Shown in pieces: positions 30,143-64,000 of a stretch of 64,000 nucleotides of DNA. The stretch's first letter is position 1; each line of letters starts with the position of its first letter. Both the position numbers and the translations under genes were made by a program. The stretch is from assembly GCA_000002445.1 (NCBI GenBank), contig CP000071.1, forward strand, positions 768,001 through 832,000, given 5' to 3'. The DNA is from Trypanosoma brucei. Its lineage: Eukaryota. The notes beneath the pieces were generated by a model. That model was given only the letters and a program-made list of their open reading frames with translations. It did not search any database and had not been told where the DNA came from.

Positions 30143-32888
30143 GGTGTTTGGGGTGCACGAAGTTATTTCTTGCTTAGCGTATTAATTTATCGGATGTGAG
30201 CGCCGGTAAGATCTATTATTTTTTTTTTTTTGGAACTGATCAGTGCTTCGCAGCTGCGCTTGCCAGAATGACCAATCTCGACTCATTTAATCTGAACGAC
30301 CACACGCTTAGTGATACATATAGAGAACACCAAGGAACATGGTTTACTAATAAAGCGGGTCCAATTAATCCCAGTGTTGGTATTGACAACATGTGGAAGT
30401 GATAATTACACTTGACTATTCCAAAGGTGAAAAAATCCAACAACGAATTTTCACCGGATGGTTGTGCTTTCACCATCCAAGCAGACCCGTTCGCGTATTC
30501 TATTGATGAACATTGCTTTAACTGGCCGTGATACGTCAGTTGATCTGTAGCATTGTCTGCATTTTTTTTTAGCTGTCGTATATCGGAACTTAGTTTCAGC
30601 ATCGCAAGGGATTGGCTTTCACTTGTCCGGAAATTTTCTTCAATAGATAATGCCGGGGAAGGGCAGGTCGTAACGCCTCCGTCGCCCTTTATGGTGCGAT
30701 TTTTCAGGGGATTGCATACGACATTTTTGCATTCGATTCCACAGAGCCCATTTGCGATATCCTTCTGGGACAAGCTGTTTTGCTGTCCGCGTGTTAACTC
30801 TGAGTTACTGTCGGTGGTAGAGAAGGGATTAACCGAAGATGTTGGGTGGTTAAGCAGGTTAGAATAGCAGTGCAAAGTGAAGGTTCAGGGAGCTACCAAG
30901 TCTGGCGCCGGGTTATTACAGTTACTGTTTGTTTTCTTCACGGATCAGTAGTTTTTCGCTGAACATATAAGATGTATTGAGGTTACGATATGGTGACTGG
31001 AAATAACTTTTTTGCAATCAGCTATGCATACTTATTCTGTGCACCAACTTGTGTGCGCGTGTCAGTCAAAATATCGGTCCAGTCGCCGTGTGATTTACAC
31101 AAAGCGAAGGACCATGTGTTTGCTGGCAGCCTCGTAGGCTGTAAGTTACGAAGTCGCCGCTGTCGAATATTAATGTGTTTTATTGAAATGTGTGAGCTGA
31201 CTGCTTGCTTAGTCCACTGCACAGTGACTAAGTGAGAGAGCTTAAATGAAACAAAGTAAACACATTTTTGAGCCTATCGGAAATTGTACTGGAGGTTGAT
31301 GCGCACAATCCTATAGGAGCGATATGATTCCCTGCACTTGTTAACTATTATGTGGGTCAAGGCTATCATTATACCGAGGTGTGGTGCATCGCGACTTGTC
31401 GCTGGTTTTCTTTAAATGGCACATGTCCTCCATATATACAAAAAGAGCTCTCCTATTTGCATCGCATGGCTTTCAAATGCTTGCGTTGGTTCCATCTGGC
31501 CGTGAGAGTACTGAAACACCGTCATGGCACCTTTTTATCGAAATTTTTCTGGTATTGGGGTGTCTGAATGAATCGTACGATGACGTTAGGAGTGTTTTCC
31601 GGCGCACAAAAGGGTTCTTAATCTGCCATCGCTATTGGTGGATGGGGTTGTCTACAGGATATTTCTTTCTTCTTGTTCTGAAACCTCTTAATATTATTTT
31701 TATCGTGACTCTGTTGGACTGATTACTAGCGTCCCCAGTCGGGGAGCAGTAGTCTTGTGGACCCAGCTGGCGCACCACTAGGACTTCCGTTTGACTGTAG
31801 CTTTCACCATCCAGGGTAACTCCCTGTTTGCAGTTGCTCTGCCCCCTTCAGACCACGCAGGGGGTCCATCCCTTTAACGATTTGCTTCAGTTTGATTGCA
31901 GATTTTATCTCGTAGTGTTTGCTTGATGGTAGCGCATCCTCATTGGCTTTGTTCGAGAGGGTGGAAGTGTCTACTTCAATAATTAACTCAATTTTGGTAA
32001 GGTATTATTGTTCCCTGTAATTATTTACACACGAACAAACTTTAGTGGCACTAGGTGACACTTGCTTACTGCCAAAGGTACCCAATGGAATTAGACAGGG
32101 TTGTTTGGATTTCAACCGGCGTAAGAAGGGGCGAACTGCCCGCCGTCAGTATGGTTGTTGATCGAAAATTTGCTCAGTTTTTACCTGATGTGAATTTAAA
32201 CGCCTAGAAGGAAGGCGGTAGTAATTTCAAAACATACCAAAGATGTGGTCATGCGTGGTTGGTGTATGGTGGTGTATTAACTGATACTACAACTTATTGG
32301 GCACCACGCTGACCCATGTGCAGGACCCAATTTGATGTCTTGAAGGGAAGTGTGTGGTGTACCTTCTATTGAAGAAGGTGTCCGGTTTTAAATACCCTTC
32401 AAGTGTTTGAGGTAGTGAATAAGGTTTTGCGTGTACTGGAAGCACGCCGTGTTATGGCTATGGTCTTCTGACAGCGCAGTTTCGTAGTGCATTGGTGTTT
32501 AGATTTGTCTGGCAGCATAGGAGAGGCGGTTTATTGTCCCTGCTCGATTTTTTTTTCCTTAGCGGCAACAACGAAATATGCCATGCAGTTAGGTACCCGA
32601 CACTCGGTACTAAGTTCACAGCTTGAGAAGGTGAAAAGAGAGCGAAAATGATGGGTGTCCAACGCGTCAACAAGACGGACTCGAAACTTGAAAAGCTATC
32701 TGTAGTGAGATGAGACGTCGAGAAACATCTCTTGATTATTGTTTACCACTACGTGCTGCATCAACTTGTATAATGGAGGGGCCCAGTATCATTGGGCTAT
32801 GCTCCAGCAATTATCCGCTCACATGTGCATAAATGTCCCCCGTTCTTCTTCAGCGTTCGCCTTTATTTTGATCCTGCTTATAGGTATC

Positions 32889-33998
32889 ATGGACCCCTCT
32901 CAAGAGGGAGCAGAATACCTTACTGCCGTATTCGCAAAACTGGGAGTTCCCTGCAGAGTTGCGAACACAGTAGAGAAGGGGAAACACATTTTAGCAACGG
33001 CCGATATGCCGGCACAGTATAGCGTCTTTGAGGAAGCTCCAGTTGTTTCTTGGCCCTCACAGGGGTATCTTACCCTTGGTGTTCCTTTCTGTCTGTTCTG
33101 TCTTCGCCAGAGAAACAACGCTGATATTGCGGATGAAGGTGAACATAACTGGAACAGTTGTGCTGGATGTGGCTCCTTATTTTGTTCCGAGAGCTGCCTC
33201 GCCTCTGCGGAAATGCCTCACAGGGTCCTATGCGGTGTGCTACAGGAACTTCGGAAGCGTGAATGCACTGATGGTTGTTGTAGGCCTATCACAAAGGAGT
33301 CCTTAGCCAACTGTGTGGCGTGGGTTGTGGGCCGTATCGCAGGGGCAATAAAACAGCGACAATTTAGTGGAAAGCTGCTTGAAGAAAATCACAGGGAAAA
33401 CGCCAATAGTATATCTAGGCAACTCTTTCATGTTGTGACCGCGCCTTTCAATCGCTTTCTTGACGCCCCAAAAAATGCTGAGTTCGCTGACGTGGACGCC
33501 AACTCTTGGTACGAAGAGATCGACAAGTTGTTGCGGGAGCCTTGTCGCGCGGTCCTTCTACAGTCCGCCGCTGCACCACCATCCATTGGAGCAGATTGGG
33601 CACTCGAGATCGTTGACGGGTTGTTGCGTCATGACACGCTCGAGAGGTTCCTTGGAATATTAACACTAAATTCGCAAGGGTTGAATGGTTTTGTTGCCGT
33701 GCCCGGTGCAGCTGGGGATATGGATTCTCCTTCCTTACCCATTACATGGGTGCTGAAGGGTGGAGGCATATATTCCTTGCAATCTGCATTTAATCACTCC
33801 TGCGTACCCAATGTCGCGGTGTTGGCAGAGGGTGGTACGCATGATATAACACTGCGTACGCTTCGCGCAATCAAGAATGGAGAGGAACTGACCATCACGT
33901 ATATACCCGTAGAGAACACTACGCGTGCTGAGCGGCAAATGAAATTGGAAGGATATTTCTTCACATGCCGGTGTCCTCTTTGTGAAGAGGAAGAGTGA
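32889..33998 (+). CDS. SET domain protein with an MYND-type zinc-finger-like Cys cluster (SMYD-like lysine methyltransferase)
   Basis: C-terminal SET signature FNHSCVPNVAVLAEGG...GEELTITYIP and post-SET FFTCRCPLCEEEE. The Cys cluster CLFCLRQ...CAGCGSLFCSESC is MYND-like. The track ORF begins at a TTG (32739), with in-frame ATGs at 32799 and 32889. I chose 32889 because a strong polypyrimidine tract plus AG (ttcttcttcagcgttcgcctttattttgatcctgcttatag) lies directly upstream of it. The exact start is uncertain. Confidence 0.72.
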   Translation: MDPSQEGAEYLTAVFAKLGVPCRVANTVEKGKHILATADMPAQYSVFEEAPVVSWPSQGYLTLGVPFCLFCLRQRNNADIADEGEHNWNSCAGCGSLFCSESCLASAEMPHRVLCGVLQELRKRECTDGCCRPITKESLANCVAWVVGRIAGAIKQRQFSGKLLEENHRENANSISRQLFHVVTAPFNRFLDAPKNAEFADVDANSWYEEIDKLLREPCRAVLLQSAAAPPSIGADWALEIVDGLLRHDTLERFLGILTLNSQGLNGFVAVPGAAGDMDSPSLPITWVLKGGGIYSLQSAFNHSCVPNVAVLAEGGTHDITLRTLRAIKNGEELTITYIPVENTTRAERQMKLEGYFFTCRCPLCEEEE

Positions 33999-36088: not shown

Positions 36089-36396
36089 AGCGGTTGGAGA
36101 CGGAGACTGGAGAAACGGAGTGGACGCCCGTAGCCCGCGGGAGGTCGTTTTCAGCCTTTTTTACCGCCACACTGGCGCTTCCGTATGCATATCGTTGGCA
36201 TGTCCGTTGTACCCGTTACGCCTCAACGTTGCTTGAGCGTTGCTGCGAAACTGGATGTAATGGAACGTGTGTCTTAATAACATCATTGATGACATTTCCT
36301 TTCTCTCACCTCCGTTCTCTTCGCTGGAATGCATGTTTAGCCACCGGAGCACTTTTGTCAAAGTAGTCTTTGTACATACGTAATTTGGCAACAAAA

Positions 36397-38538
36397 ATGG
36401 CCACTGTCACGGAGGCACCTTTAAAGTCACCGCAGGATAGATTGGTGGAGCGCGTGTGCTCATCGGAGGAAGACGACTCTGGCCGTTACGTCATTGCAAA
36501 AGATGACATCAGTCCCGGTGAAATTGTATTGCTAGCAGCACCTTATGCGGTAGCCCTCAACCCCAACGAGGCTGTGAGCGCAATGTATGTGGCGGCCAAC
36601 GTGGAGGAGTGGGAAGATGCCTCCATGGGAGAACTGGCAGGACGCCGGGTCGGCCAGAGGGTCAAGAAGAGCGGCAACATCCCAACGGATGGTGGTGAAT
36701 ACGTGGCGTTGAGCCCGTGCGTAACATTCTGCTCCTGCTGTCTGCGACGCATTCCAACAGGTACGCCTTTCCTCAATTGCGAAACAATCGAGGTCCTTTC
36801 CCACTTAATTGCTGTGGAGCACGTTGAGAGTGAAAATGCAAAGTGGGAAAAAGAACGAGAGTCTCACCAACGAACTGGCTCTGATGCCGGCGATGCAGCC
36901 GATCTCGGAGATAGGATGCACATCAAGAAGGAAAAGAAATTGCAGAAGCCTGCCAGGTCTGCTAAAATGCGGTCGAAGGGGTATTTATCGCTGAAGCAGA
37001 GGTTGCTAGAGGCCGCCACTGCCCAACGTGAGTCCGCCATGTACGAAGCTCAGAAATTTGGTGGTGCGCTGGGCGACAGCAGTAGGAATATATCGTGGCC
37101 GGAACGAGTTGTGGAAAAGCACGTTCTTGAAGAAGACCTGCTGGTGCGAGGTGCGTGTGGCTGTGCTGGTTGCGGCGTAGCTATTTACTGCTCAAAGTCC
37201 TGTTGGCAGAGTTTTAATGAATTACACCGCGCTACGGGTGCGTGCCGCGTTTTGCGCGACGTTTATTCACCGCTGATGAGGATATTCTTGTCACGTATTA
37301 CAAAGGGAAACAAGGGAGGGTCCGCCGAAATTTTTTGTATTGACTCATGGAGCCCAAAGCACTGGCTTCGACGAACAACCGATGAGAAAGCATGGGAGAT
37401 GCTGCAGCTGCTTCTTGCAGCCCTTCTGGTGGGAAGGTGCGCGAAGGAAGGGTATGCAAACAATATGAGGGAGGAAGAGAAAGAGAGACAACACCCAGCG
37501 GAGAATGTGGACGACTATTATAGTGAAGAAGAGGACAGAGTTTGGGGAACCATGGGCGATGAGGAGTCTGCATCACCAAGAGACTGTGACCACCTCCAGG
37601 TCTCGAACACTCCAACCACGGGGACGAAGATAGAGGAGGACGGAGGTAGGGATGTGTCAATTACCGTGAACTCTGCAATTCCCCGTGAAGCGGAGGTAAT
37701 CCGCTTGGTACGTTCACGGATGGGCACAGCGGTTGAAGTTTTGGACTCTAGGGTGAATGAATGCGGAAAATGCCCCCCTAGTGTGGGAAGGATCCCAATG
37801 TCGCTTTGCGTGTCCATTAAGGACCATATCGTGCTAGGTATACGTGCAGACGGTTCCGAAACACATGCAATTCAGTGTCCACAATGGCCTGAAGCTGCCG
37901 CTCTGGTTACAAACCTTTCCGTGTTAAGGAAAGAGTCTCGGTCAGTGTTCCGCAGGTACTACCGCCGGTTTTGCCTGTCTGTGCTCCCTTGGCTGAACTG
38001 CAGTGAGGGGACCGACGAGCCACTCAGTGTTTCTTCCAGCTTCTTTGACCGCTTGTGCGGTGCCGTGCAGTGTAACAACTTTGGTTTGTTTGACCCCAAG
38101 GAAGACTGTATCGGTGTTTCCGTCATCCCAGAGGCCTCGTACTTCAACCACAGTTGTTTGCCAAACTTATGTCGTGTCATGTGCGACGGTGGCATTGCTG
38201 CGTTCTATGCGTTGCGCGAAATCCGCAAGGGTGAACCCCTCACTATTTGTTATGTGGATGTGCAGGAAGTATCAACAGCAGAACGCCGGCGTACGCTTCT
38301 TACTTCCTATCGGTTTTTCTGCCAGTGTAAACGCTGCAATGGGAGTAGCGTGGTTGACGACAAGACGGATGCTGACGCGGCCAAGCTGAGGTTGTGTGGT
38401 GCGTGTGCTGCGCGTGGTTACCTACGACCACTCCCACCTACTGACGCTGCTATCCTTTGTCGTTGGACAATGGACAGCATAGCAACCGGAGAGTGTACCG
38501 TTTGTCACAATCGAGCACCGTGGGGGGGGACTTCCTAA
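36397..38538 (+). CDS. SET domain protein with an MYND-like zinc finger (second SMYD-like paralogue, 713 aa)
   Basis: SET signature YFNHSCLPNLCRVMCDGGIAAFYALREIRKGEPLTICYVD and post-SET FFCQCKRCNG. The MYND-like cluster is CGCAGCGVAIYCSKSCWQSF...HRATGAC. There is a long Glu-rich insert. The track start at 36370 is a TTG. The first ATG is at 36397. Confidence 0.8.
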   Translation: MATVTEAPLKSPQDRLVERVCSSEEDDSGRYVIAKDDISPGEIVLLAAPYAVALNPNEAVSAMYVAANVEEWEDASMGELAGRRVGQRVKKSGNIPTDGGEYVALSPCVTFCSCCLRRIPTGTPFLNCETIEVLSHLIAVEHVESENAKWEKERESHQRTGSDAGDAADLGDRMHIKKEKKLQKPARSAKMRSKGYLSLKQRLLEAATAQRESAMYEAQKFGGALGDSSRNISWPERVVEKHVLEEDLLVRGACGCAGCGVAIYCSKSCWQSFNELHRATGACRVLRDVYSPLMRIFLSRITKGNKGGSAEIFCIDSWSPKHWLRRTTDEKAWEMLQLLLAALLVGRCAKEGYANNMREEEKERQHPAENVDDYYSEEEDRVWGTMGDEESASPRDCDHLQVSNTPTTGTKIEEDGGRDVSITVNSAIPREAEVIRLVRSRMGTAVEVLDSRVNECGKCPPSVGRIPMSLCVSIKDHIVLGIRADGSETHAIQCPQWPEAAALVTNLSVLRKESRSVFRRYYRRFCLSVLPWLNCSEGTDEPLSVSSSFFDRLCGAVQCNNFGLFDPKEDCIGVSVIPEASYFNHSCLPNLCRVMCDGGIAAFYALREIRKGEPLTICYVDVQEVSTAERRRTLLTSYRFFCQCKRCNGSSVVDDKTDADAAKLRLCGACAARGYLRPLPPTDAAILCRWTMDSIATGECTVCHNRAPWGGTS

Positions 38539-40372: not shown

Positions 40373-41521
40373 ATGCTTGGTGCTGTTCCTCCTATAGTAG
40401 TACTTCCGTCGAATCCAGCATACGAACTCCGTCCCGTCCCCGTTGTTTCCAGGAGCGTTGGCCTTTATGGTCCCCCACAGAATGAGACACACGGTAGCGA
40501 TAGAGGACCAGGTGCAGGACGATCCAACGTGTGGCGCGGGGACAATGTTTCAGTTCCGCCCTCAAATGCTACTAGTAGAACCAACGAAGTTGCTTTGCAT
40601 GAGGGACAAGAAAAAAGAACATCAGAAAGTGGCCCTCTAGAAGCGTTTCCAAATAATCACAGTCACTGCTTAGACAGGGTAACGGATAAGGAAGTGGACG
40701 TACTCCTTGACGTCCTAAGTGCACGCTACCAGAAGTACGTGGGGTTGAAGCAACGGAGTACCGAACGGTACCTGGCGCGTGTCGAGTCGCATGTGGACCG
40801 GTTTTTAAGGGAAAAATATAGAAGTGGTACTTCGCTATTTGCTGGCGGTGTGGCATCCTTCATAAAGAGTAAGCTTCCGAGTCCTTTTCACTCGCCGAAG
40901 CCAACGTTCAACAGCGAAAATGGAAAAGATACCCACCGGGAGTTCCCCACTGGTAGTGCCACTGATATTCATGCGAGTTCCGTCTCACGTTCCCTGCCTG
41001 CACTGGAACAGTGCTCGTATACGCCGCAGTGCATTCCCTTTAACTATTTGGATGTACGTCCGGAGAATATGGAGGCAATTGCTGCGAACCTTGCCGTGCT
41101 GCAACACTGCCTAGCTGAACGTGTCAGTCAAGGAAGTTCAGGACGAAAAGAACTTTTGGAGCCAATCATCCGCGATGTGTGGGAAAAAGAGCTGGACCCA
41201 CTTCTCCGTGAAGCCACAGAACTGCTTCGGGTGGCACAATGCAACGTATGGCCCCCGTTGGAATACTTTCTATCCCGTAACGTCGGAAGGGTCAGTGGTG
41301 AGCGACGGCTAAGGTACGATTGTGTCGTGAGAGGATTGCGGGGAGACTTGCATTATCTGGAGACCATCCGCAAGATGGAACACCTGGTGATCGATGGCCA
41401 GTCTAACGGAGCGGGCGAGGAGTCACTGGATTACGTTCCTGTGGGAGGTCTGGCGTTGTCGCGCCTGTACAGACTTGAGAATGAGCACCGAACAGTCTTG
41501 GAGTTTTGGCGGTCGCGATGA
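40373..41521 (+). CDS. Hypothetical protein (382 aa)
   Basis: ATG-initiated ORF on the coding strand, preceded by a polypyrimidine tract at 40200-40330. No recognisable motifs. Confidence 0.6.
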   Translation: MLGAVPPIVVLPSNPAYELRPVPVVSRSVGLYGPPQNETHGSDRGPGAGRSNVWRGDNVSVPPSNATSRTNEVALHEGQEKRTSESGPLEAFPNNHSHCLDRVTDKEVDVLLDVLSARYQKYVGLKQRSTERYLARVESHVDRFLREKYRSGTSLFAGGVASFIKSKLPSPFHSPKPTFNSENGKDTHREFPTGSATDIHASSVSRSLPALEQCSYTPQCIPFNYLDVRPENMEAIAANLAVLQHCLAERVSQGSSGRKELLEPIIRDVWEKELDPLLREATELLRVAQCNVWPPLEYFLSRNVGRVSGERRLRYDCVVRGLRGDLHYLETIRKMEHLVIDGQSNGAGEESLDYVPVGGLALSRLYRLENEHRTVLEFWRSR

Positions 41522-42552
41522 ACAGTTACTGAAGCGGTGCTCGACCGGGCATTTTTTCTCCTTCCCATTCCTCGTCTGTTGCTTTGAAGCATCGTGTGCC
41601 GCATTTAATGCTTGGTTTGCAACACTTGCTGTTGAAACGGGGACTCACGGCGCGATGGTGGCACCGCTGGCCGCTTCGGTGGTGGACGGCCTGGGCGAGT
41701 CTCACTACTCTTCAGCCGCTTGCCTGCGGGTACACATACCTTGAAGTGATCAGTTTCTGCCTTGGGCATCTTGTAGTGCTGGGTGCCACATACCTTCCCC
41801 CCTTGCTGACGCTGCGTTTCCTGGCGTGCTCCTTTACGCTCTCTCCCCATCACTGATCACTGGGAATAGGGTCGTCTTCATGCTTCTGGCCCACGAGTGT
41901 TGAAAGAGTTAGACGCACGAGGAAGCTAAACACTGGTAGGTAGAATTCAGCACAATTCATAGGGCAGGCGTGTCTCGTGTGACACATGAAGCGCTTCATA
42001 CAAAGCCGCCGTGTGTGGAACCTCATGGATATCAGGCGGCGGCCACCCGTACTCAACCGCCTACGCGGCGTGCTGCAGTTCGCCCAACAACCAGGTGCTC
42101 TTTCCAGACACCGTCAGGGTGGTGACTACAATTGTTCTATGCGCGTAAGTATCTACTCGCGCCCAGGAAAAGTGAGCAGGTTAAACAACGCAGATGCCAC
42201 ATGGCACAACCGCAGTAGAAAAGAAAAGCCGCCCGACTTTGATCCCTCGGCCTTCCGGCGACGGTACAGGGACTCGTGAGTTGAAACCTGTAGTCAAGAC
42301 TATCCACTTTCGTTTGAGCACTCCTTCACTTTTTGCTGCTCACTTATCCCAACACATGCACTGCACAAAGTTTCGCGCACATAAACTCTTTTAACCATTT
42401 ATCATCTCTCTGAAGAGAAGGCTTTAAATAGGTGGCATCGGTTTCAGAGTAATAAAAGTAATAAGGAGGGGGAAAAAAAAAAGAGAATACAGTAGCAATA
42501 AAATATTAACAAAACGCGCGCGTCAGCATTCGTATAGAGGAGGGTAAACGTC

Positions 42553-43569
42553 ATGTTCCGAAGGCTCACACAGTACACAGGAGTTGTAGGCGCTGTGCGC
42601 ACCATTGTTGTGTTCAGTCAACAGCACCACATACTGGAGAGCAATCAAAAAGCTCGGAGCAGCCCCAGCAACGTGTGGATCGAAGACTGGGAGGCTGAGA
42701 GCTATGGACTGACTCCAGAGCCTGGTGCCGTGTCCACGCAGCTGCTACTAGACAAGCCGCTCGAGCTATATAATTTCGATCAGCTCCTCTCTCCACCGGA
42801 GGTAATGGAGGCACCAAAGCACAGCAGTTACAGCTCCCGGAAGGTTTATGGTGAAAAGCTGCAATTCGAGCTCAATGATCGCGCTCAGAAGCATGGGTTC
42901 CACAGTAAGTGGTGGTTAACGAGAACGCAGGCTGTGAAGAACGCCCTCACGTTTAAAAACAACGCACGTAGCTCCATCATTCTCTCGAAGAGCTCACTCA
43001 GGTTGTACCACTCCAGTCAGTTGGTTGGCGGAGAAGCACTCATGACACATCCCGTATCAGGCGGCTCGAGGAAGCTCTACAGCAGGAAGGGAGATGCATA
43101 TCAGGTGCTGTGCGAACACATCCGTCAGAACGCCTTCAACAGCGGTCTCTACTTTACGAGACGGCAGCTGGAGTTCTTCAAGTTGGCGGTGCAGCCGAGT
43201 CAAGCACCTGTGATGATGGATGTCTCATCTGGGGAGCGGTTCCTCATCTTCAACGTGGAGCAACTCGAGGACCCCGAAGTGGCACTGAGGACTCTCGACC
43301 GCTCACCAGTGAGCATTCCGACCTTCCTTCTCTCAGGTGAACCGATGCAGCACGAAGGGGTAAAAAGGCTTCCCAGGTTTAAGAGCAATTACTGGCTAAG
43401 CGGGCGTGATGCTGAGCTGTACCAGTGGCCAATCAAAGAATCAGAGAAGAAGAGGGGAGTAACGCTAAAGAACGAGGGGAGTGCGTCGCTGCAGGTGGAG
43501 TTGTTTAACGTAGAACAGCTGGCAAACCCTGAAGAAGCATTCGCCAAGGCTGGACTCTTTGTCCAGTGA
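42553..43569 (+). CDS. Hypothetical protein (338 aa) with three internal [LF][YF]N[FV][DE]QL motifs and a presequence-like N-terminus; paralogue of the 45493 gene
   Basis: Motifs LELYNFDQLLSPPEV, FLIFNVEQLEDPEVA and VELFNVEQLANPEEA. Conserved block KHGFHSKWWLTRTQAVKNAL. The N-terminus MFRRLTQYTGVVGAVRTIVVF is basic/hydroxylated and amphipathic. Confidence 0.65.
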   Translation: MFRRLTQYTGVVGAVRTIVVFSQQHHILESNQKARSSPSNVWIEDWEAESYGLTPEPGAVSTQLLLDKPLELYNFDQLLSPPEVMEAPKHSSYSSRKVYGEKLQFELNDRAQKHGFHSKWWLTRTQAVKNALTFKNNARSSIILSKSSLRLYHSSQLVGGEALMTHPVSGGSRKLYSRKGDAYQVLCEHIRQNAFNSGLYFTRRQLEFFKLAVQPSQAPVMMDVSSGERFLIFNVEQLEDPEVALRTLDRSPVSIPTFLLSGEPMQHEGVKRLPRFKSNYWLSGRDAELYQWPIKESEKKRGVTLKNEGSASLQVELFNVEQLANPEEAFAKAGLFVQ

Positions 43570-45492
43570 TAGAGTGAGTTACCGCGCGAATGGGAACGAA
43601 GAGGGCGAACCATAAACAAAAGAGAAGAACAGCACCTCCGGGAAACCCCCAACGGGGAAGAAAAAGCAAGCAACCGGAGGACAGGAACTCAAAAAATCTT
43701 ATAAAAGGGAGGAACCGCGGGAAAGTGATCGTTCTTTTTTACACGCAAATGAACTCATGCAGTAGGGGGAGAGATGGGTTGGCGCTGCACTCACTACGAA
43801 GGAAAAGAAGTAGGAGAGCGAAAATCTAGTTGTATTTATGGGTGACGAGGTGCGACCAAGGATCTTCGATATGCGCTGCTAAACCAGTTAACCGGGTGTG
43901 CGTTTATACTCATTTACACGGGAAAGGCACAAGATGCGGTGTTGGGGGACAGCGAAGAGAGTGTCCTTCAAGATTGAACGGAATTGTTTGGACATGGTAA
44001 AAGAGATCATGGGGCGTAGAGTGAATTACTAGGGCAACGGTCGAACACAACCACGCCACCTATACTTGGTGTGGTTTACCTCTTCTCTGTTGACTCCTCA
44101 GGTCTTTGTTTTGCTGCTTGATCCCCCAGCATAGTGCCTCCAAGTGGTTAGAGGTTTGTGAACCGAGGTGTGTGCGTCACAGGTTCAGTAGCATTAACCG
44201 TTCCTCCCTTACTTTATTTCTGAGAAATTACGTTATTTCTACCACACTTTTTCTCCGCACATGGGGCAAAGTTTCCCATTCCTCCGTGTGGCACGCGCCA
44301 CTGTCTTGCCAGTTATATATTTATTTATATATCCGCCTTTTTGTCTTCATCTGCCCCGGTTGGTAGTTGTGCGCGTATCACCTTGGGCCAGGCTTGTCGC
44401 GCAGCATAGATTAATGCACTTGTTTATTGGCTAAGGAGTTTTGTGGGCCTTTTGTACGTTCTGAGGGCATTGAGTGGGCTGTCGATTTTGTTGTAAAGGG
44501 GTGGAGAAACTGATTGTGGCTACGCCAATTGGGAACCATGTCTGCTTCACTCTGCCGCACATGGGGAGGGGGAAAAAGAAGTAAAGTGGAAGAGTGAAGG
44601 AGTGAGTTGTCAAACGTACTCGTGCCGTTATTCTGTGCATACGTAACCTCTGTCTTGCAGAGCCCCACCCCAATATTTTTGCGGGTCACCTCCTTCCCTC
44701 CCCCCCCCTTTCCCTCATTTTTGGTGTTCTCTTCCCAAATTTTATTCATTCCCTTCCACGGGAGCGTCCCATTAAATGATTTCCCCAAAGTTCTTTATCT
44801 TACCGATTTTGTTTTCTCTGTTTTGCAGAGGATTTACTAGCTTTTGCTGTTTGACAGTCCGAAGCAAAGCAACAAAGAGAGTAGTAAAAAAGAACCATGC
44901 TCACGACGTGTTTCGCTCAGTTGTGGTAATATTCTTCCCCGATGCTCTCCGTTTCAGTTTATTTCACCTGTCACACACGTCCAAAAGCACACCGGCCCTC
45001 ACCGTGAGTCTCACATGCATCCGTACTCGGGTCCAGCCGTCAATTCAGGTGGAGGAGGAGGAAGGGGCTGGCAGCGTCCAGACACCTCTGAAGTAGAGGT
45101 GTGTAGGAGGGGAATGCGAGAGGAGTAAAATAATTAACCTCTATGGGATGGATACTAGACGGAAAGAACAAGCTTATGTATAAGCGGCTTACGCATGTAA
45201 TAGTCAATTTGTCTTTAATGTGGATAAAACATGCTTTCCTGGTTGTGCTGAACTCTCCGTTCATCTTGCCTTACATCTTTTTCGTGTGCTTCTCTTTCCG
45301 TTCGTGCCTGTGTAAACCTAAACTCACACTGTCGTTTAAACTATTACGAACAAAACCCGAGGGTTCGCGTGGCCTTCGCTTCCGGAGCATTGATTGTCAT
45401 CACTGCGGGGGACGCGGGTGAACACGCTACGGCACTCATTTATAGACGTAGACACATCAGGCATAGCGCAACGCACCTGACATATAAGTTAA

Positions 45493-46827
45493 ATGCGGTG
45501 TTCAGCGCGCCTTGCCGCTGTCTTTACGCCGGCGATGCCTCATTTGGATGCTTTTCTCAGACGTCACACCCGACCCGATCACCGATTGCGCCATCATCCA
45601 CTGTGGCTCAGTGAAGAAGACCTGCAGCACCTAGGAAACATTTCCATCGACAGGACGAACCATTGTGGCAGCAGTCTATGTAAAGCGGACGGGCCTCTAC
45701 CAACTGTGCTGGTGGAAGCTCCACGCACGGTTTTCCTCTACAACATGGACCAACTTCCTCCTGAATGCGAGGTCCGGTGGCAGTTTCCGCCCGTAGACGT
45801 GCCATCGTCGGTGAGCAGTATGACAGGTTACAAACTTAAATCCCGCGAACTACTGGAAAAAGCCCGCCATGAGATGGGCTACGAGTCCAACTGGTGGGGC
45901 ACAAAGGCGGCGTGGGCCAAGAAAGGAGTCATGGTGGATATGAACTTGCTACCCACGCCCGTTCCTTCATTACATGTCAGCCAATTCCTTCACATATCAT
46001 TCCTCGTGAACGGTGATCACGTATTGAAGAACTCGTACATCTCTGGGAAGACCGGATCATTAAAATCTTGGACAAGCCATGAGGGTGTACCATCGGCATA
46101 CGAGGATTTTCAGCGGCTGGTGAAAGAACATATGCAGGCCCATAGTTTTGCCTCTCCTCTATACTTCTCGGAGTCTTCACTCCGGAACGCAGGGATTTCC
46201 ATCCGGCCAGGTGTTCAACCCCTGGACTTTTCCGATGTTCAACACACGAACAGCTACATAGGGAACAGGAAACTTGCGCTTCAGGAACTCACAACTACCT
46301 ACCAACAATACTACCACTTGTCACAGCTTGTATTCCCAGCTGGCTACAGAATTCCACGGTCCGTAGTTGAGGTGGAGCGTCAGAACCCCGGTGTGCCAAT
46401 CCACGGAATGACTGGTCGATTGCTGAGTGTCCCTGAGCTACATCCCGAAGCAATCGTGAACTCCAGCGCACCTGAATTGGCACCGTTTGTGATGCGGGGC
46501 AGCAATGAGACCGGCAGTAATGAGCCCAACAATGTTTCATCAGTTGTGGACTTGGAATCCCCGTGTGCTGCGTATGGAAGGAACTTGTGGTACTTACCAC
46601 AAGACGTGCTTGAAGCGGGTGGTGTGGTTGATCCAAACGCAATGCCCGTGGAGGCTGCTGTTGGTAGTCACTCTGACAAGAGGCGGCGCAAACTTTACAA
46701 TGTCGAACAATTGGTGATTCCACTTGAGGGTTACAAAGCAGTTGGTTGCATTGCTACCATGAACCGTTTCGTTCAGTCAGACAAGCCGCCATGTGCTGGA
46801 ACCTTAGCGGGTGATGAGTTGGGGTAG
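45493..46827 (+). CDS. Hypothetical protein (444 aa), paralogue of the 42553 gene with the same repeated LYNxEQL motif
   Basis: VFLYNMDQLPPECEV and KLYNVEQLVIPLEGY. The block EMGYESNWWGTKAAWAKKGVMV aligns with KHGFHSKWWLTRTQAVKNAL of the neighbour. The N-terminus MRCSARLAAVFTP...RRHTRPDHRLRHH is presequence-like. Confidence 0.65.
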   Translation: MRCSARLAAVFTPAMPHLDAFLRRHTRPDHRLRHHPLWLSEEDLQHLGNISIDRTNHCGSSLCKADGPLPTVLVEAPRTVFLYNMDQLPPECEVRWQFPPVDVPSSVSSMTGYKLKSRELLEKARHEMGYESNWWGTKAAWAKKGVMVDMNLLPTPVPSLHVSQFLHISFLVNGDHVLKNSYISGKTGSLKSWTSHEGVPSAYEDFQRLVKEHMQAHSFASPLYFSESSLRNAGISIRPGVQPLDFSDVQHTNSYIGNRKLALQELTTTYQQYYHLSQLVFPAGYRIPRSVVEVERQNPGVPIHGMTGRLLSVPELHPEAIVNSSAPELAPFVMRGSNETGSNEPNNVSSVVDLESPCAAYGRNLWYLPQDVLEAGGVVDPNAMPVEAAVGSHSDKRRRKLYNVEQLVIPLEGYKAVGCIATMNRFVQSDKPPCAGTLAGDELG

Positions 46828-47550
46828 CAATTGGTGAGCCCTGGGAAAAGTGGAGACTCGCCCAGGACTCTGAGTGGAGAAAACAGCGATGAAGAGGGGG
46901 GTTTTGGGGTAAGCTAATAGTTGCCGAGCTCGGTAGAAGGATCACGGACGGTTGGCCCTCGCGGTGGAGCGAACGGCGGAACGCCTTGAGTTTGGCACCA
47001 TATGTTTGCGTTGTCTGCACGAAGGGGTGCCAAGTGATTCGTTTCACAAGTTATTATTTTCACATACAACTCTTTTACTCTCCTTTCATTTGTCGATTCT
47101 GCACCTATCCCTGCGACCTGCTACCGGCCTTGGATGGCGAACTTCTTTGTGCATTGAATCTGGATCCCACTTCCCTTTCCAATTTTATTCTCCAGTGACA
47201 ATTTTGTGCCATTCTTTTTTTCAGTCATCCCTGTTTGTTTGGAGGGGGATTCTCGATGTGGTGGCATCACTGGTGCTGGTAGAAACCCAACCTGGGAACG
47301 GAGAGCCTCTACCACACGTCGGCTCCGTGCGAACCGAGCGCCTCCCGGGTCCTAGCGGGTGTTTTTTTTTTCTAAATTCGTTTTGATGTATTGTTGTGAG
47401 AGTTTAGGGACCTGCAGGAGGGATACAAGGTGTTGTGAAACGGGTTGGGCTACAAATCGTGTGCTTATAATTCTTTTTCTCGTTTCGGTTGTTTCTGCGA
47501 GCTAGGCCAGTGAAAGAATTTGAGAATTGGGCTTCCATAAGCTGGCTGTT

Positions 47551-48984
47551 ATGACGAGCAAGCATGTGGTGGGGAATGTTTTCGCTGCTACGGCTGTTCT
47601 GCGATGTGGACGCTTCGTCAGCGGTACGCGATTAGGATGTAGCTCCGGGAAAATTATTATCCCGACACTTCCTACTTCAGGGGTGGTTGAAAGGAACCTC
47701 GGATCGTTTTCCTCCACTTCGGCTCTGGGCCGTGGAAGCAGCGAGTACTACGAAAACAAGAGGATGGACCCTGCAGTGGGACAATTTCTTGGCGGTGATG
47801 CCAGTGCTACACTTCGGCGGCAGCAGCAGCTTGAGCATTTTCGCAACGCTACGGAGGACGCCGCCGTGAGGATATGGCGGGACTCTAAGAGCCACATTCG
47901 ACGGCAGGAAAAACTTGTGCAAGATATAGGTGTAGAAGGGGCAGTTCGAGAGCTGCTCCAGCCTACACAAATTTCATTTCGTCAGGAGCTACGTCAGCGC
48001 CCATTGGACCGCGGTATCCTGGAGGAAATATATAAGGGACTGCACGGGAGGCGGATCGAAAGGCAGTTGAAAAGGGGTGTGTCATGGGAGCATTGGATTA
48101 CAAAGGGTGATGGCACCGCACCGGTGTTCACCGCCTCTAGGAAGGCACAGCAAACATTTGCGTTTGGTGGTAACATTAAGCTAGTGGCGAAGGCGACACA
48201 CCCCAAACAGTTCCCGGTTATGGCCATGGGTGGAGGGTATGAAAGCAGCAACGGTGTTTTCGCAATGGGGGAGTCGCAGCGTTTGGTGCCGGAGGTTGCG
48301 TTTGTTGGTCGCACTTCGAGTGGAAAATCGTCACTGGTGAATGCCATTGTAAATGCGATGGTTGCACCGTATGGGCACCTGCAGGGGACGACTAGCTCCG
48401 TTAACTTCTACAACATTGCAGACAAAATAGTACTTGTAGACTGCCCGGGGTACGGTTATTACAATCCAATGGAAACACCTCATCTGGACGCGGAGAATGC
48501 CGTGGCGTCAATGCGTGCGTATCTCACTTCATGCAGCCGTTGCGTTGACGAGAAGCAAGCGGTGGCGGGTACGGGCCGTATCAACATAGCAGAGCGGGCC
48601 GCTAAGGACAAGGCGGCAAAGCATGGGAACAGAAGTCGCATTCGTGCTCCGGGTGTACCTCGTCCGATTAAGCGTGTATTCGTTTGTGTGTCTGCACGCG
48701 GGATGCAACACAGTGATTTGGCGTACCTGGACCACCTAGAGACTCTCTCCCTTCCCTTCTCTGTTGTTCTCACAAAAACGGATGCCGCGCCCATTCGATT
48801 TCTTGCGCGGCTTGCGGACCACACACGCTGCCAGCTTGTTCATTACAAGAATTGCAAGGAGCTACTTCTAACGAGCTCACTTCGGCTTGCCGGAATTGAC
48901 AAAATGCAGAGTCTTATTGGAAGTATGGCACTTGGGGAAGACAAGCTGCATGGCGCGACGACTGACTTCAGCGCCATTGTTTAA
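47551..48984 (+). CDS. EngB/YihA-family GTP-binding protein (ribosome-biogenesis GTPase) with an N-terminal mitochondrial-presequence-like extension
   Basis: G1 VAFVGRTSSGKSSLVNAIV. G3 VLVDCPGYGY (DxxG). G4 VVLTKTD (TKxD). The start is the ATG at 47551 (MTSKHVVGNVFAATAVLRCGRF). The track start at 47527 is a TTG. Confidence 0.85.
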   Translation: MTSKHVVGNVFAATAVLRCGRFVSGTRLGCSSGKIIIPTLPTSGVVERNLGSFSSTSALGRGSSEYYENKRMDPAVGQFLGGDASATLRRQQQLEHFRNATEDAAVRIWRDSKSHIRRQEKLVQDIGVEGAVRELLQPTQISFRQELRQRPLDRGILEEIYKGLHGRRIERQLKRGVSWEHWITKGDGTAPVFTASRKAQQTFAFGGNIKLVAKATHPKQFPVMAMGGGYESSNGVFAMGESQRLVPEVAFVGRTSSGKSSLVNAIVNAMVAPYGHLQGTTSSVNFYNIADKIVLVDCPGYGYYNPMETPHLDAENAVASMRAYLTSCSRCVDEKQAVAGTGRINIAERAAKDKAAKHGNRSRIRAPGVPRPIKRVFVCVSARGMQHSDLAYLDHLETLSLPFSVVLTKTDAAPIRFLARLADHTRCQLVHYKNCKELLLTSSLRLAGIDKMQSLIGSMALGEDKLHGATTDFSAIV

Positions 48985-61518: not shown

Positions 61519-62683
61519 TGGCACAGAGGGTAACGAAGTAGGAATTTTTGCCGCCAGCTGAGGTCGTTTACCTTGGGTTGGCTGTCATGGAGATAGGGAA
61601 GAGAGAAGCAACATCGCGTGCAAGGAAAAACGAACAGAAGAATCGATCCCTCCCCCCTCCATGAGTCCTTCTTCGTTTATAATTTCGGCTGTTGTTTTTG
61701 CTGTCACCTTTTTTTTTCTTCCTTCTCGTTCGCCACACCCTCTCCTCAACCTCCTTTACCTCCATGGATCTCTCGGCAGCAGTCCCCCTCCCCTCATTCC
61801 CCTCATGTTTTGGTGGTCGCCTTATTGGCACCTCTTTTCGTCATTTTTTCCCCCCACTTGCTGCAGTTCAAGGCGTATTTGTGGGGAGAGTAAAGAACAT
61901 AAGTGAAATCTGAAAACAATAGAAAAGAGAGATGAATTAATTAATGAATGAATGGGAGAAATAAGGAGGAGAGGTGGTGGAGAGCTGGGGAACTGTAATG
62001 AAGAAGAAAAAAAAGAAGAACGAGGGAAAGGTAGATTCAGTGGGGGAGACAAAACAGTGAAGAAGAATCTGGCGGAAAGCAACAATAAGTGTGAAAATGA
62101 GAACGAAGGTGTGAATGATTCTTCAGTTTAAGAAACCACACGTGAAGAAGGACAGAATATATAAATAAATATATCTATTTATATGTTGATGTCTCAGAAG
62201 AAAAAAAGCAAAGGAGGGGAGATAGAAGAGGTTTAAAGGGAGGAAGGAAGACAGGCCCTGAAACCAATAAAACAAAATAAATAAATAAAGAAACGCGAAA
62301 TCAAAACTGAAAATGCGAAAAAAAAAACGAAGAACAAGAAGGGTGCAATGAAGGAATGAACTCCACAGAGAGAATACCCGTTCAAACATTCTTTTCTTCG
62401 TTTTTCCCCTCCTCCTCTCCCCGACGCAACCGCCCCCCTTTTTTTTCTATAATTGGCTCTTCTGACCCACACCCCCTCACTTTCCTTCTCAAAGAACGGC
62501 ATCTTGTTTTCCCACCCTTTATTATTGTTAATTTCTTTTTTCGCTTTACTATTATTATTATTATTTACCACCCCATCACCGTTACTTTTAGTTGTTTTTT
62601 TTTTTTTTATGCCTCTCTCCTTTCATTTTTTTGCGCTTTTGCTCCTCCTTATTGGTTATGTAGAGCGATTTATATAAATCTAA

Positions 62684-62704
62684 TATATATATATATATAT
62701 ATAT
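62684..62704. repeat. (AT)10 microsatellite
   Basis: atatatatatatatatatata. Confidence 0.85.
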
Positions 62705-62976
62705 TTGTATTCATATATTTTATGTCTTATATACATAACTACTTTCGCGCAGAAAAGGGAAAGAGGAAAGGAGAAGAAGGGGGAAAATAGAAAGCCCATG
62801 CACATATATATATATATATATTTATTTATTTGTTTATTTATTTATATATATATATATATGTATTCTTTGTACCTCCCTTTCGTTTTTACTTTGTTTTTTG
62901 TTTTACCTTTTTTTTGTTTCTACTTTGTTTCTTGTTTTGTTTACTGTTAGTCACTCCTTACTATTTTTACCGCCTC

Positions 62977-63112
62977 TATTATTATCACTATTATTATTAT
63001 TATTATTACTATTATTATTCCTATTATTATTATTATTATTCCTATTATTATTATTATTATTATTCCTATTATTATTATTATTCCTATTACTACTGCTATT
63101 ATTATTGTTATT
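62977..63112. repeat. Imperfect (ATT)n / (TTA)n trinucleotide repeat, about 135 nt
   Basis: tattattatcactattattattattattattactattattattcctattattattattattattcct... It produces spurious poly-Y/poly-L ORFs in the track. Confidence 0.9.
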
Positions 63113-64000
63113 TCTGGGGCTACTGCAGTGCTTTCCCTTTCTTTTTCTTTGGGTGTTCGCGTGGTTGAGATTGTGATGTGACTTCTGTTTGCTGACGATT
63201 GTTTGTTTCTATTTGATTGTGCCGGTGTCTGTTTTCCCCCACCCCCGTGATGTCACGAAGAAAAACAAAAATTAAATTGAAAAGTTTTTACTTCTCCTCG
63301 TCCAAAGCAATTGCTCTCCTCCTTCCTTTTCTCCACACGCGCGCACGTACGTAGTGAACTAATCAAAGAGTGAAGAAATAAAAATAAAAACACGCGTCGT
63401 GTTGTGGATCCCTTTTTCGGATCCAATTTGCGCTATTGCTTTTTTTTGTTAGTATTATTGTTTTGTGCTTTTTTTTTTCTTTTTCTGTGTGTGTAATATG
63501 ATTTTGTCGCTTTTCATTCAGCGGAAGCAGACAGTAAAGTTATGGGCTCATATGCTTGCATGTGCATTCCATCCGATATTGCGCGGGAGTTGTTGTTTTG
63601 TTTTGTTTTTCACACCTTCGTCCCTTTTTTTTTTCTTTTTGGTTTTTATTGTTTGTATATATTTTCATATTTATGTACATATATTAGGAGCAAATGCATG
63701 CGTGTTTGTGCTTTAACGCCCATGTGTGCGCCCCTTGGCTTGCTTTCCCACAAATACCCTTTCGAAACGCCTTACGGAAGCGGGGACAATATAATTAAGA
63801 AGAAAGGGAGATGGGGGGGAAAAAAAAAAGAGAAAGAGAAAGAGAAACACCGGCTCGTAGACATGAGGAGAGGAATCAAAAAAAAGACAATGAAATGAAA
63901 TAAAGTTAAGTGAAGTGAATTGAAACGAGGTAAGAATTTAAGAAGTTAAGAAAGCTGGTGACCCGCCGTCGCTTTTCTACTTCATTCCACTCTTTTTTTT

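Follow-up and report, generated by a model that had tools for sequence, protein, structure and literature searches.

Two adjacent genes on Trypanosoma brucei-group chromosome 8 encode p38 (Tc38/RBP38) and a Tc-38-like paralog, each with four ArdC-N-type modules

Two neighboring plus-strand ORFs lie within the window analyzed here, a 64,000-nucleotide segment of Trypanosoma brucei-group chromosome 8. An initial annotation had described them as paralogs that share an internally repeated motif and define an unrecognised domain family, which raises the question of what the two proteins are and whether the family is new. The coordinates and lengths of both ORFs agreed exactly with that annotation (Table 1). 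ORF1 showed 100% identity to a T. equiperdum entry named "mitochondrial RNA binding protein," and its computed molecular weight (38497.2 Da) coincides with that given for Tb927.8.2740 (38.497 kDa), the gene identified as p38 (PMC10719067). ORF2 was 100% identical to T. equiperdum TEOVI_000592300, and its molecular weight (49378.6 Da) likewise coincides with that of Tb927.8.2750 (Q57XB4; 49.379 kDa), which was labelled "hypothetical protein, conserved" in datasets from 2017 and 2024 and whose peptides have been seen in two proteomic studies. p38 and its sister gene Tb927.8.2750 are members of a family already described, because published work describes the repeated motif as the signature of its DNA-binding modules. 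The observation in the initial annotation was therefore correct and its biology largely correct, but its claim of novelty was wrong. In the spacer between the genes only short ORFs were found, with no coding evidence, and an Rfam scan of positions 41500 to 47600 gave 0 matches. Minus-strand ORFs at 43389-43673 and 46295-46723, which overlap the genes, had no support and were discarded.

Table 1. Features of the p38-paralog locus (positions in the window)
Feature	Position	Strand	Evidence or remark
ORF1, TbRBP38/p38/Tc38 (Tb927.8.2740), 338 aa, founding member of the Tc-38 family	42553..43569	+	Pfam PF20054, E 1e-39
ORF1 presequence-like N-terminal segment, aa 1-18	42553..42606	+	MFRRLTQYTGVVGAVRTI
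ORF1 repeat 1, ArdC-N-like, aa 19-85	42607..42807	+	motif LYNFDQL, nt 42766-42786
ORF1 repeat 2, aa 99-164, SKWWLT aromatic pair	42847..43044	+	degenerate motif LYHSSQL, nt 43003-43023
ORF1 repeat 3, aa 179-245	43087..43287	+	motif IFNVEQL, nt 43246-43266
ORF1 repeat 4, aa 264-330	43342..43542	+	motif LFNVEQL, nt 43501-43521; hhalign; secondary structure
Intergenic spacer between ORF1 and ORF2 (UTRs)	43570..45492	.	no Rfam match; only short ORFs
ORF2, Tc-38-like paralog (Tb927.8.2750), 444 aa	45493..46827	+	PF20054, E 2.4e-8; PF08401
ORF2 repeat 1, aa 14-95	45532..45777	+	motif LYNMDQL, nt 45736-45756; secondary structure
ORF2 repeat 2, aa 113-178, SNWWGT	45829..46026	+	degenerate motif FLHISFL, nt 45985-46005
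ORF2 repeat 3, aa 199-286, long disordered hairpin insert	46087..46350	+	motif YYHLSQL, nt 46309-46329
ORF2 repeat 4, aa 349-415	46537..46737	+	motif LYNVEQL, nt 46693-46713; secondary structure

Family membership was established with Pfam. Both proteins passed the gathering score of 23.2 for PF20054 (Tc-38), with 134.5 bits for ORF1, where the match falls into three stretches, and 34.0 bits for ORF2, and ORF2 also passed PF08401 (ArdcN; 26.2 bits against a gathering score of 22.6, with ORF1 at 20.9). Several orthologues of either protein have precomputed PF08401 matches. That the pair defines a new domain family with a novel repeated binding motif is thus highly improbable: ORF2 is annotated "hypothetical," and p38 repeat 3 and ORF2 repeats 1, 3, and 4 fell below Pfam detection when scanned as single slices, but the full-length matches, the published family, and its motif (PMC6222260) already refute this idea, and ORF1 has been studied experimentally as p38/RBP38/Tc38. 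The family was stated to be kinetoplastid specific by Krishnan in 2018 (PMC6222260), as the initial annotation had suspected, and all named homologues that we found were from kinetoplastids (Trypanosoma, Leishmania, Porcisia, Phytomonas, Strigomonas, Angomonas, and Bodo).

The initial annotation had given the repeated motif as the pattern [LF][YF]N[VFM][ED]QL, in two to three copies per protein. All five quoted motif strings were found in the ORFs, with two sites in each protein fitting the pattern; the third ORF1 copy, IFNVEQL, fits only the looser wording "hydrophobic-[YF]-N...". Repetition of the motif was thus confirmed, but the count was too low, as a relaxed pattern recovers four copies per protein, placed at even intervals: LYNFDQL72, LYHSSQL151, IFNVEQL232, and LFNVEQL317 in ORF1 and LYNMDQL82, FLHISFL165, YYHLSQL273, and LYNVEQL401 in ORF2. 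The [LIF][YF]-N-x-[ED]-Q-L repeat is the "hhsxxQ" signature of the Tc-38 family, published as a "squiggle" that in Tc-38 is followed by a hydrophobic residue after the Gln (PMC6222260). This extended form is present in all four ORF1 repeats and in three of the four in ORF2, the exception being repeat 2, where Phe replaces the Gln. The xxQ of the motif coincides with a predicted 3-10 turn. A long beta-hairpin closes with the two hydrophobic residues; the squiggle, a single 3-10 turn, is framed by the small or polar residue on one side and the Gln on the other, and the last strand opens with the hydrophobic residue that comes next. A second conserved block, S-x-W-W/Y-F-x-T/S, supplies aromatics that in related domains contact DNA. 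According to the initial annotation, its reading was to fall if both proteins matched a well-characterised Pfam family with the motif in unconserved loops; a characterised family was indeed matched, yet it is the conserved core of the domain, and not unconserved loops, that holds the motif.

Alignment of the slices with hhalign, Pfam scans of each repeat, and a secondary-structure pattern that recurs eightfold identified four ArdC-N-type modules per protein. In the published description of the family, Tc-38 proteins carry two to six ArdC-N copies and fall into 12 paralog clades (PMC6222260), and the four DNA-binding modules per protein are derived from bacterial plasmids. All pairs of p38 repeats aligned with hhalign P values between 8e-9 and 4e-5. 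Repeat 1 of p38, predicted to fold as helix, strand, helix, hairpin, 3-10 turn, and strand, matched Pfam Tc-38 by itself (E 1e-19) and aligned with the other repeats at P values of 4e-6 to 4e-5. Repeat 2 alone matched Tc-38 (E 3.4e-6) and ArdcN (E 0.003), and 24 orthologues all share its residues W120, W121, H153, S155, and Q156. Repeat 3 shares the secondary-structure pattern of the other repeats and aligned with repeat 4 (P 8e-9) and with ORF2 repeat 3 (P 3e-7), while repeat 4 alone matched Tc-38 (E 1.3e-11).

The modules of ORF2 were related to those of p38 in the same way. ORF2 repeat 1 aligned with p38 repeat 1 (P 1.1e-5), and its residues W38, L82, N84, D86, Q87, and L88 do not vary among 10 orthologues. 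Repeat 2 alone matched Tc-38 (E 4.6e-6) and ArdcN (E 8e-5), and no other repeat of the two proteins matched ArdcN better; its signature Gln is lost in trypanosomatids and present in bodonid orthologues (FYHISQL and VFHISQL). Repeat 3, in which Y273-Q278 are invariant among orthologues and residues 251 to 270 are modeled with a pLDDT below 50, aligned with p38 repeat 3 (P 2.9e-7) and repeat 2 (P 1.5e-6). Repeat 4, with W366 and N403-L407 invariant among orthologues, aligned with p38 repeat 4 (P 5e-5) and slightly better with repeat 3 (P 6e-6), whereas the best p38 match of ORF2 repeats 1 to 3 was the repeat at the same position. The ORF2 model has a moderate pLDDT of 63. The ArdC-N three-dimensional fold was recovered, and in a Foldseek search ArdC ranked first without reaching significance (E 0.8). 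Profile searches against PDB chains gave 0 matches, hence no ArdC, for p38 and only chance-level matches, again without ArdC, for ORF2; those to PCNA (E 0.045) and to an M23 peptidase (E 0.7) were taken as noise.

Two known architectures were rejected. A full-length ArdC anti-restriction protein has a C-terminal metalloprotease and a single ArdC-N on a conjugative element, but Pfam detected no peptidase domain in ORF1 or ORF2, and their context is eukaryotic, polycistronic, and chromosomal; the ORFs therefore derive from ArdC-N but are not ArdC. The XPC/Rad4 arrangement, a transglutaminase-like domain followed by BHD1-3, was likewise not that of either ORF.

We then asked how the two genes are related to each other. 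By BLASTP, ORF1 and ORF2 are 27% identical over 217 amino acids (E 3e-11). Their Smith-Waterman score of 136 stands well above that of 1,000 shuffled controls (36.4 +/- 5.2; maximum, 61; z = 19), as the initial annotation would have it. Similarity and motif recurrence arising as a chance or compositional artefact deserve almost no credence, given this z score, a chance expectation for the motif of about 1e-5 per protein, a six-frame scan of the whole window in which the pattern matched nothing beyond its two sites in each protein, and retention of the motif in orthologues from Trypanosoma to Bodo. The aligned block quoted previously, KHGFHSKWWLTRTQ against EMGYESNWWGTKAAW, falls in repeat 2, the best-conserved module (hhalign P 1.6e-14 between the proteins), where it comprises helix 1, a strand, and helix 2.

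The proposed tandem duplication and divergence of adjacent paralogs gained support from gene order, which is kept as far as Bodo saltans. The order p38, paralog, GTPase is common to T. vivax and B. saltans, the p38-paralog pair is also adjacent in Leishmania tarentolae, and a divergent metagenomic kinetoplastid supports the synteny as well. Because this order is conserved to Bodo, the tandem duplication is ancient. A recent duplication or gene conversion was rejected since the two genes share no significant repeats at the nucleotide level. These observations suggest that ORF2 arose from p38 by a tandem duplication predating the bodonid-trypanosomatid split and has probably evolved several times faster than p38 since then; T. 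brucei and T. vivax share 45% identity in ORF2 and 81% in p38, and the corresponding values for T. brucei and Bodo are 23% and 45%, respectively. An NJ tree placed p38 as the nearest paralog of ORF2, which is weak support because the tree carries no bootstrap values and leaves out the other T. brucei Tc-38 clades. In the 2018 family paper (PMC6222260), the main text makes no mention of the conserved tandem arrangement.

The initial annotation had also proposed that both proteins are mitochondrial, on the strength of basic N termini. Both lack acidic residues in at least their first 15 amino acids; in ORF1 the first 20 contain three K/R and no D/E, residues 1 to 17 are disordered in the model (pLDDT below 50), and the M[FL]RR start is kept among orthologues while the length of the segment varies. 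Published data bear this proposal out. In Peikert 2017 (Suppl. Data 2a), TargetP is positive for p38 and Tb927.8.2750 and MitoFates for p38 only, both proteins are within the mitochondrial reference set, and Tb927.8.2750 is reduced upon ATOM40 RNAi (ratio 0.54, p 0.026). TrypTag places p38 at antipodal sites; Tb927.8.2750 was not found in the TrypTag supplement files searched. In each protein, a short mitochondrial presequence would precede a tandem array of four modules, each about 70 to 90 amino acids long.

As for function, the suggestion of a modular nucleic-acid-binding surface held up, in that the motif marks four ArdC-N modules. According to the literature, p38 is a mitochondrial DNA-replication protein that binds the kDNA minicircle origin (PMC10719067), and p38 or its orthologues bind single-stranded G/T-rich DNA, including the universal minicircle sequence (UMS), hexamer template strands, and poly[dT-dG] (PMC10719067, PMC6222260, PMC2654453); p38 knockdown leads to kDNA loss and accumulation of free minicircles (PMC10719067, PMC6222260, PMC2654453). 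The physiological ligand has been debated because orthologues have also been reported to bind RNA and telomeres (PMC2654453). Under the RBP38 proposal, summarised in the same source, the main target would be RNA, with nonspecific stabilisation of mitochondrial transcripts rather than action at kDNA replication origins. Database entries are still named "mitochondrial RNA binding protein," and a single-strand-binding fold could in principle take RNA. Nevertheless, the binding of p38 to UMS and hexamer template strands, its antipodal localization, its knockdown phenotype, and the DNA binding of the ancestral ArdC-N and related BHD domains (PMC6222260) make this proposal decidedly unlikely.

For ORF2, loss of nucleic-acid binding would leave a protein scaffold or regulator, pairing for example with p38. 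This is consistent with its fast divergence relative to p38, the missing Gln of repeat 2, long disordered linkers, a conserved segment in the linker between repeats 3 and 4 that lies outside any repeat, an abundance about 100-fold below that of p38, and the swelling of Leishmaniinae-type homologues to 555 to 1173 amino acids (890 in the L. tarentolae orthologue). However, all four repeats keep their aromatic and motif residues unchanged across 10 Trypanosoma orthologues despite an overall identity of only 44 to 54%, the four-module architecture has been kept since the bodonid ancestor, and it is the Gln-less repeat 2 that gives the best ArdcN match. We consider such a degenerate protein rather improbable, though less so than RNA as the main target.

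We therefore favor, with a probability of roughly 0.9, the reading that ORF1 is p38 and that ORF2 is a Tc-38-like paralog with a presequence and four modules that arose by ancient tandem duplication and is a putative mitochondrial ssDNA binder. ORF2 would be imported into the mitochondrion, where its four-module array would bind single-stranded kDNA, possibly RNA, with a sequence preference probably unlike that of p38. More tentatively, and with the odds against it, Tb927.8.2750 may be a non-redundant, second, fast-evolving kDNA single-strand-binding factor that has stood beside p38 since before the bodonid-trypanosomatid split and has another target, such as the maxicircle origin or minicircle classes unaffected by p38 knockdown, in which case the pair would represent the duplication from which the entire Tc-38 expansion began.

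As a discovery the locus has little weight: the Tc-38 family, its origin from bacterial plasmids, the repeat architecture, and the motif have all been published and are in Pfam already, and p38 (ORF1) is a textbook factor of kDNA replication. What it offers is a testable hypothesis for Tb927.8.2750, as a sister of p38 and putative four-module ssDNA binder, and a p38-paralog-GTPase order from Bodo to Trypanosoma that dates the duplication and sets a slow copy against a fast one.

Among known systems, ORF1 is the T. brucei member of Tc-38/p38/RBP38 (PF20054; clade Tc-38.1, Krishnan et al. 2018). ORF2 resembles this family in its Pfam model, four repeats, hhsxxQ with a hydrophobic residue after the Gln, aromatic SxWW, and mitochondrial import; it differs from p38 in its much faster evolution, in the loss of the repeat 2 Gln, and in being 106 amino acids longer because of hairpin and linker inserts. 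ArdC (PF08401; R388 ArdC, PDB 6SNA/6I89), which acts in plasmid conjugation and anti-restriction, has one copy of the N-terminal ssDNA-binding domain fused to a metalloprotease domain, whereas ORF1 and ORF2 each carry four copies in tandem behind a mitochondrial presequence and lack a protease domain, and their repeats are shorter than the 123-position Pfam ArdcN model. BHD1-3 of XPC/Rad4 (PDB 2QSH) is also among the closest known systems. Finally, the universal minicircle sequence binding protein UMSBP, a CCHC zinc-knuckle protein, shares with p38 the binding of single-stranded, G-rich UMS at the origins of minicircles and therefore overlaps with it in function, but its zinc-knuckle fold is unrelated and its family is not restricted to kinetoplastids.

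Two neighboring ORFs on the + strand, here ORF1 and ORF2, were proposed in the initial annotation to be paralogs, and the ORF listing reproduced their coordinates and lengths exactly. BLASTP aligned ORF1 with ORF2 at an E value of 3e-11 (27% identity across 217 aa), and the Smith-Waterman score of 136 far exceeded the scores of 1000 shuffled controls (36.4 +/- 5.2, maximum 61; z = 19). These alignments leave no doubt that ORF1 and ORF2 are homologous. No nucleotide-level repeats joining the ORF1 gene to the ORF2 gene were found, which indicates that the duplication is old.

Features of the p38-paralog region and other observations, in window coordinates
Feature	Position	Strand	Description
SET-domain genes	32739-33998, 36370-38538	+	two genes close together, upstream of the pair
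ORF1	42553..43569	+	338 aa, ORF listing; p38
ORF2	45493..46827	+	444 aa, ORF listing; paralog of p38
ORF2 repeat 2 motif	45985-46005		aa 165-171
ORF2 conserved segment	46369-46500		aa ~295-335, between repeats 3 and 4
MMR_HSR1-type GTPase gene	47527-48984	+	directly downstream of the pair
Low-GC region	62000-64000		GC content down to 0.34; long low-complexity tracts
(TA)n	near 62680-62700 and 62800-62850		within the low-GC region
(ATT)n	62960-63110		within the low-GC region

The same annotation took the pair for an unrecognized family, and this was wrong. ORF1 matched Pfam PF20054, "Trypanosoma Tc-38 (p38) protein," in three stretches (E = 1e-39, 134.5 bits), and ORF2 also exceeded the cut-off of 23.2 bits (E = 2.4e-8, 34.0 bits). 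Against PF08401, the N-terminal domain of the anti-restriction factor ArdC (cut-off, 22.6 bits), ORF2 scored 26.2 bits and ORF1 a subthreshold 20.9 bits. The computed masses, 38,497.2 Da for ORF1 and 49,378.6 Da for ORF2, match those tabled for Tb927.8.2740 (TbRBP38; 38.497 kDa) and Tb927.8.2750 (Q57XB4; 49.379 kDa) by Peikert et al. (2017, PMC5436138), whose proteomic tables name the latter "hypothetical protein, conserved." In Trypanosoma equiperdum, a "mitochondrial RNA binding protein" is 100% identical to ORF1 and the uncharacterized TEOVI_000592300 is 100% identical to ORF2. A 2022 review of kinetoplast DNA (kDNA) lists Tb927.8.2740 as RBP38, an ArdC-domain protein that binds the universal minicircle sequence (UMS) and hexamer template strands and is found at antipodal sites (PMC10719067). 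The flanking genes, in order SET, DUF676, a hypothetical gene, the pair, an MMR_HSR1 GTPase, and an IP3 receptor, are arranged as in Trypanosoma vivax and are consistent with T. brucei chromosome 8. ORF1 is the T. brucei representative of Tc-38.1 and ORF2 belongs to the Tc-38-like family, which is already known; there is no new family here. Elsewhere in the window, the low-GC region contains no ORFs of 200 aa or more and looks like an extended untranslated or intergenic region.

All five motif strings that the initial annotation quoted were found in the two proteins, and the pattern behind them is real and nontrivial; most of the biology guessed from it was also correct. The literal expression [LF][YF]N[VFM][ED]QL has two sites in ORF1 and two in ORF2, with no others anywhere in the 64-kb window when all six frames are translated, and is expected by chance from composition about 1e-5 times per protein. 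The third ORF1 copy, IFNVEQL, starts with Ile and lies outside the literal expression. When the pattern was relaxed, each protein was seen to carry four evenly spaced copies (LYNFDQL72, LYHSSQL151, IFNVEQL232, and LFNVEQL317 in ORF1; LYNMDQL82, FLHISFL165, YYHLSQL273, and LYNVEQL401 in ORF2). Krishnan, Burroughs, Iyer, and Aravind (iScience 2018) described Tc-38-like proteins as two to six tandem ArdC-N single-stranded DNA (ssDNA)-binding domains, most frequently three or four. In their account the stem kinetoplastid took this domain over from a conjugative element of bacteria, and the family grew to 12 paralog clades (PMC6222260). Their ArdC-N signature, "hhsxxQ," forms a 3-10 turn ("squiggle") ahead of the last strand, and in Tc-38 proteins a hydrophobic residue follows the Q (PMC6222260). 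The pattern first noticed in the sequence is this published motif.

Orthologue alignments of p38 (24 sequences) and ORF2 (10 sequences) were cut into four repeats, R1 to R4 from the N terminus, and compared by hhalign. All pairs of p38 repeats were related, with P values between 8e-9 and 4e-5. Between the two proteins, repeats at the same position matched significantly (R1-R1, 1e-5; R2-R2, 1.6e-14; R3-R3, 3e-7; R4-R4, 5e-5), and the same-position repeat was the best p38 partner of ORF2 repeats 1 to 3, whereas for ORF2 R4 it was p38 R3 (P = 6e-6) that scored slightly better than p38 R4. These same-position matches indicate that the four-fold internal duplication is older than the gene duplication. 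When single repeats were scanned, the Pfam Tc-38 model detected p38 repeats 1, 2, and 4 and ORF2 repeat 2, and gave no match to p38 repeat 3 or to ORF2 repeats 1, 3, and 4, which are too divergent for it.

In AlphaFold2 models (mean pLDDT, 78.4 for p38 versus 63.0 for ORF2), all eight repeats are predicted to fold as helix, short strand, helix, long beta-hairpin, three-residue helical turn, and strand, the hairpin of repeat 3 being interrupted or only partly modeled in both proteins. Within the motif, xxQ sits on the helical turn and the next Leu falls in the strand, so that element order and motif placement, as modeled, agree with the 2018 description (PMC6222260). Foldseek searches with the models ranked ArdC first, though not significantly (E = 0.8), and sequence-profile searches of the PDB with the p38 and ORF2 families found no relative.

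The pair is also adjacent in four other genomes or contigs, as the synteny check proposed at the outset showed. T. vivax shares the entire SET-to-IP3R block with the window and encodes a 463-aa paralog; in Leishmania tarentolae the paralog (890 aa; L003, 11382-14054) is collinear with ORF2 and has long inserts. In a divergent metagenomic kinetoplastid, a 1585-aa unannotated gene stands between SET and the p38-like gene, which is followed by a 443-aa Tc-38 protein, then a 230-aa minus-strand gene and the GTPase; Bodo saltans contig CYKH01000481.1 has a 341-aa Tc-38 protein, the 400-aa CUF99184.1, and an MMR_HSR1 GTPase. Since the synteny includes Bodo saltans, the tandem duplication is older than the bodonid-trypanosomatid split. 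T. vivax and Bodo saltans share the p38-paralog-GTPase order with T. brucei; in the metagenomic kinetoplastid the 230-aa gene separates paralog from GTPase. T. vivax and the metagenomic kinetoplastid also have a SET gene upstream of p38.

The two genes have evolved at very different rates. Identity to T. brucei is 81% for p38 and 45% for the paralog in T. vivax, 68% and 27% (partial) in L. tarentolae, and 45% and 23% in Bodo saltans. With the ORF2 family as profile, an exhaustive search returned 59 proteins at an E value of 1e-3 or better. Most were p38-like proteins of ~340 aa; the others were ORF2 orthologues, homologues with long linkers (555-1173 aa), and 443-aa forms resembling the downstream member of the pair in the metagenomic kinetoplastid. 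In Leishmaniinae-type homologues of the paralog (P0038-P0053; 555-1173 aa), long low-complexity linkers separate the ArdC-N modules, whereas p38 is nearly constant in length (338-360 aa). Dozens of the ~340-aa proteins that this search returned come from Logan and ENA assemblies (P0057-P0091) and are only 25-36% identical to p38 over their full length; they could represent p38-like paralog clades or kinetoplastids that branch deeply, such as the Perkinsela expansion. A neighbor-joining tree without bootstrap support, leaving out the other T. brucei clades, weakly suggests a p38-like group apart from an ORF2-like group.

In ten Trypanosoma orthologues of ORF2, all four repeats have an invariant aromatic block and invariant motif residues, which argues that each module is still under selection, with an exception at repeat 2. 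There the signature Gln is gone in trypanosomatids (FLHISFL, LLHISFV, IVHISLI), where Trypanosoma and Leishmania have F or L instead, and is kept in bodonid orthologues (FYHISQL, VFHISQL). A degenerate ORF2 serving as a scaffold is a conceivable but less likely reading than one that works as p38 does. Despite the loss of Gln, repeat 2 is the module closest to p38 and ArdC-N. Outside all ArdC-N repeats, Trypanosoma orthologues and the one from L. tarentolae share the conserved segment NPGxPIHGxTGxxLxxPELxxEAIxNSxxPELA; its database matches comprised PCNA alone, at chance level (E = 0.045), and it could be an interaction motif specific to this clade.

Basic N termini had suggested organellar targeting, and results for the checks proposed with that idea were already in print. 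The first 20 aa of ORF1 hold three K/R and no D/E, the first 15 aa of ORF2 two K/R and no D/E, and both N termini are disordered in the models. Peikert et al. include both proteins in their mitochondrial reference set (Supplementary Data 2a), where TargetP is positive for both, as anticipated, and MitoFates for Tb927.8.2740 only (PMC5436138). Upon ATOM40 knockdown, Tb927.8.2750 fell to 0.54-fold (p 0.026; PMC5436138). TrypTag lists Tb927.8.2740 at antipodal sites; Tb927.8.2750 was not found in the TrypTag files searched. In a 2024 dataset the latter is still a "hypothetical protein, conserved," with 1-2 peptides and an intensity roughly 100-fold below that of RBP38. The downstream GTPase, which by gene order is Tb927.8.2760, is flagged as mitochondrial-ribosome associated and as positive by TargetP and MitoFates in Supplementary Data 2a (PMC5436138); therefore, three consecutive genes encode mitochondrial proteins.

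Previous work showed that p38 and its orthologues bind ssDNA with a G/T-rich preference that includes the UMS, that their association with kDNA and antipodal sites varies with the cell cycle, and that knockdown leads to loss of kDNA and buildup of free minicircles (PMC6222260, PMC10719067, PMC2654453). An RNA-directed role, as in the original RBP38 proposal, is less likely. Krishnan et al. inferred that the ArdC-N modules in tandem build an extended interface, which covers about 24 nucleotides or more and keeps the origin unwound (PMC6222260). Tb927.8.2750 would act like p38 inside the mitochondrion, probably on a different target sequence. What this adds to a known family is a concrete hypothesis for the unstudied paralog and a deeply conserved tandem arrangement. 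Neither protein is ArdC, though both derive from ArdC-N: the protease domain is missing, the module is present in four copies, and the context is a eukaryotic chromosome. To the BHD array of XPC/Rad4 the two proteins are analogous, with an independent origin.
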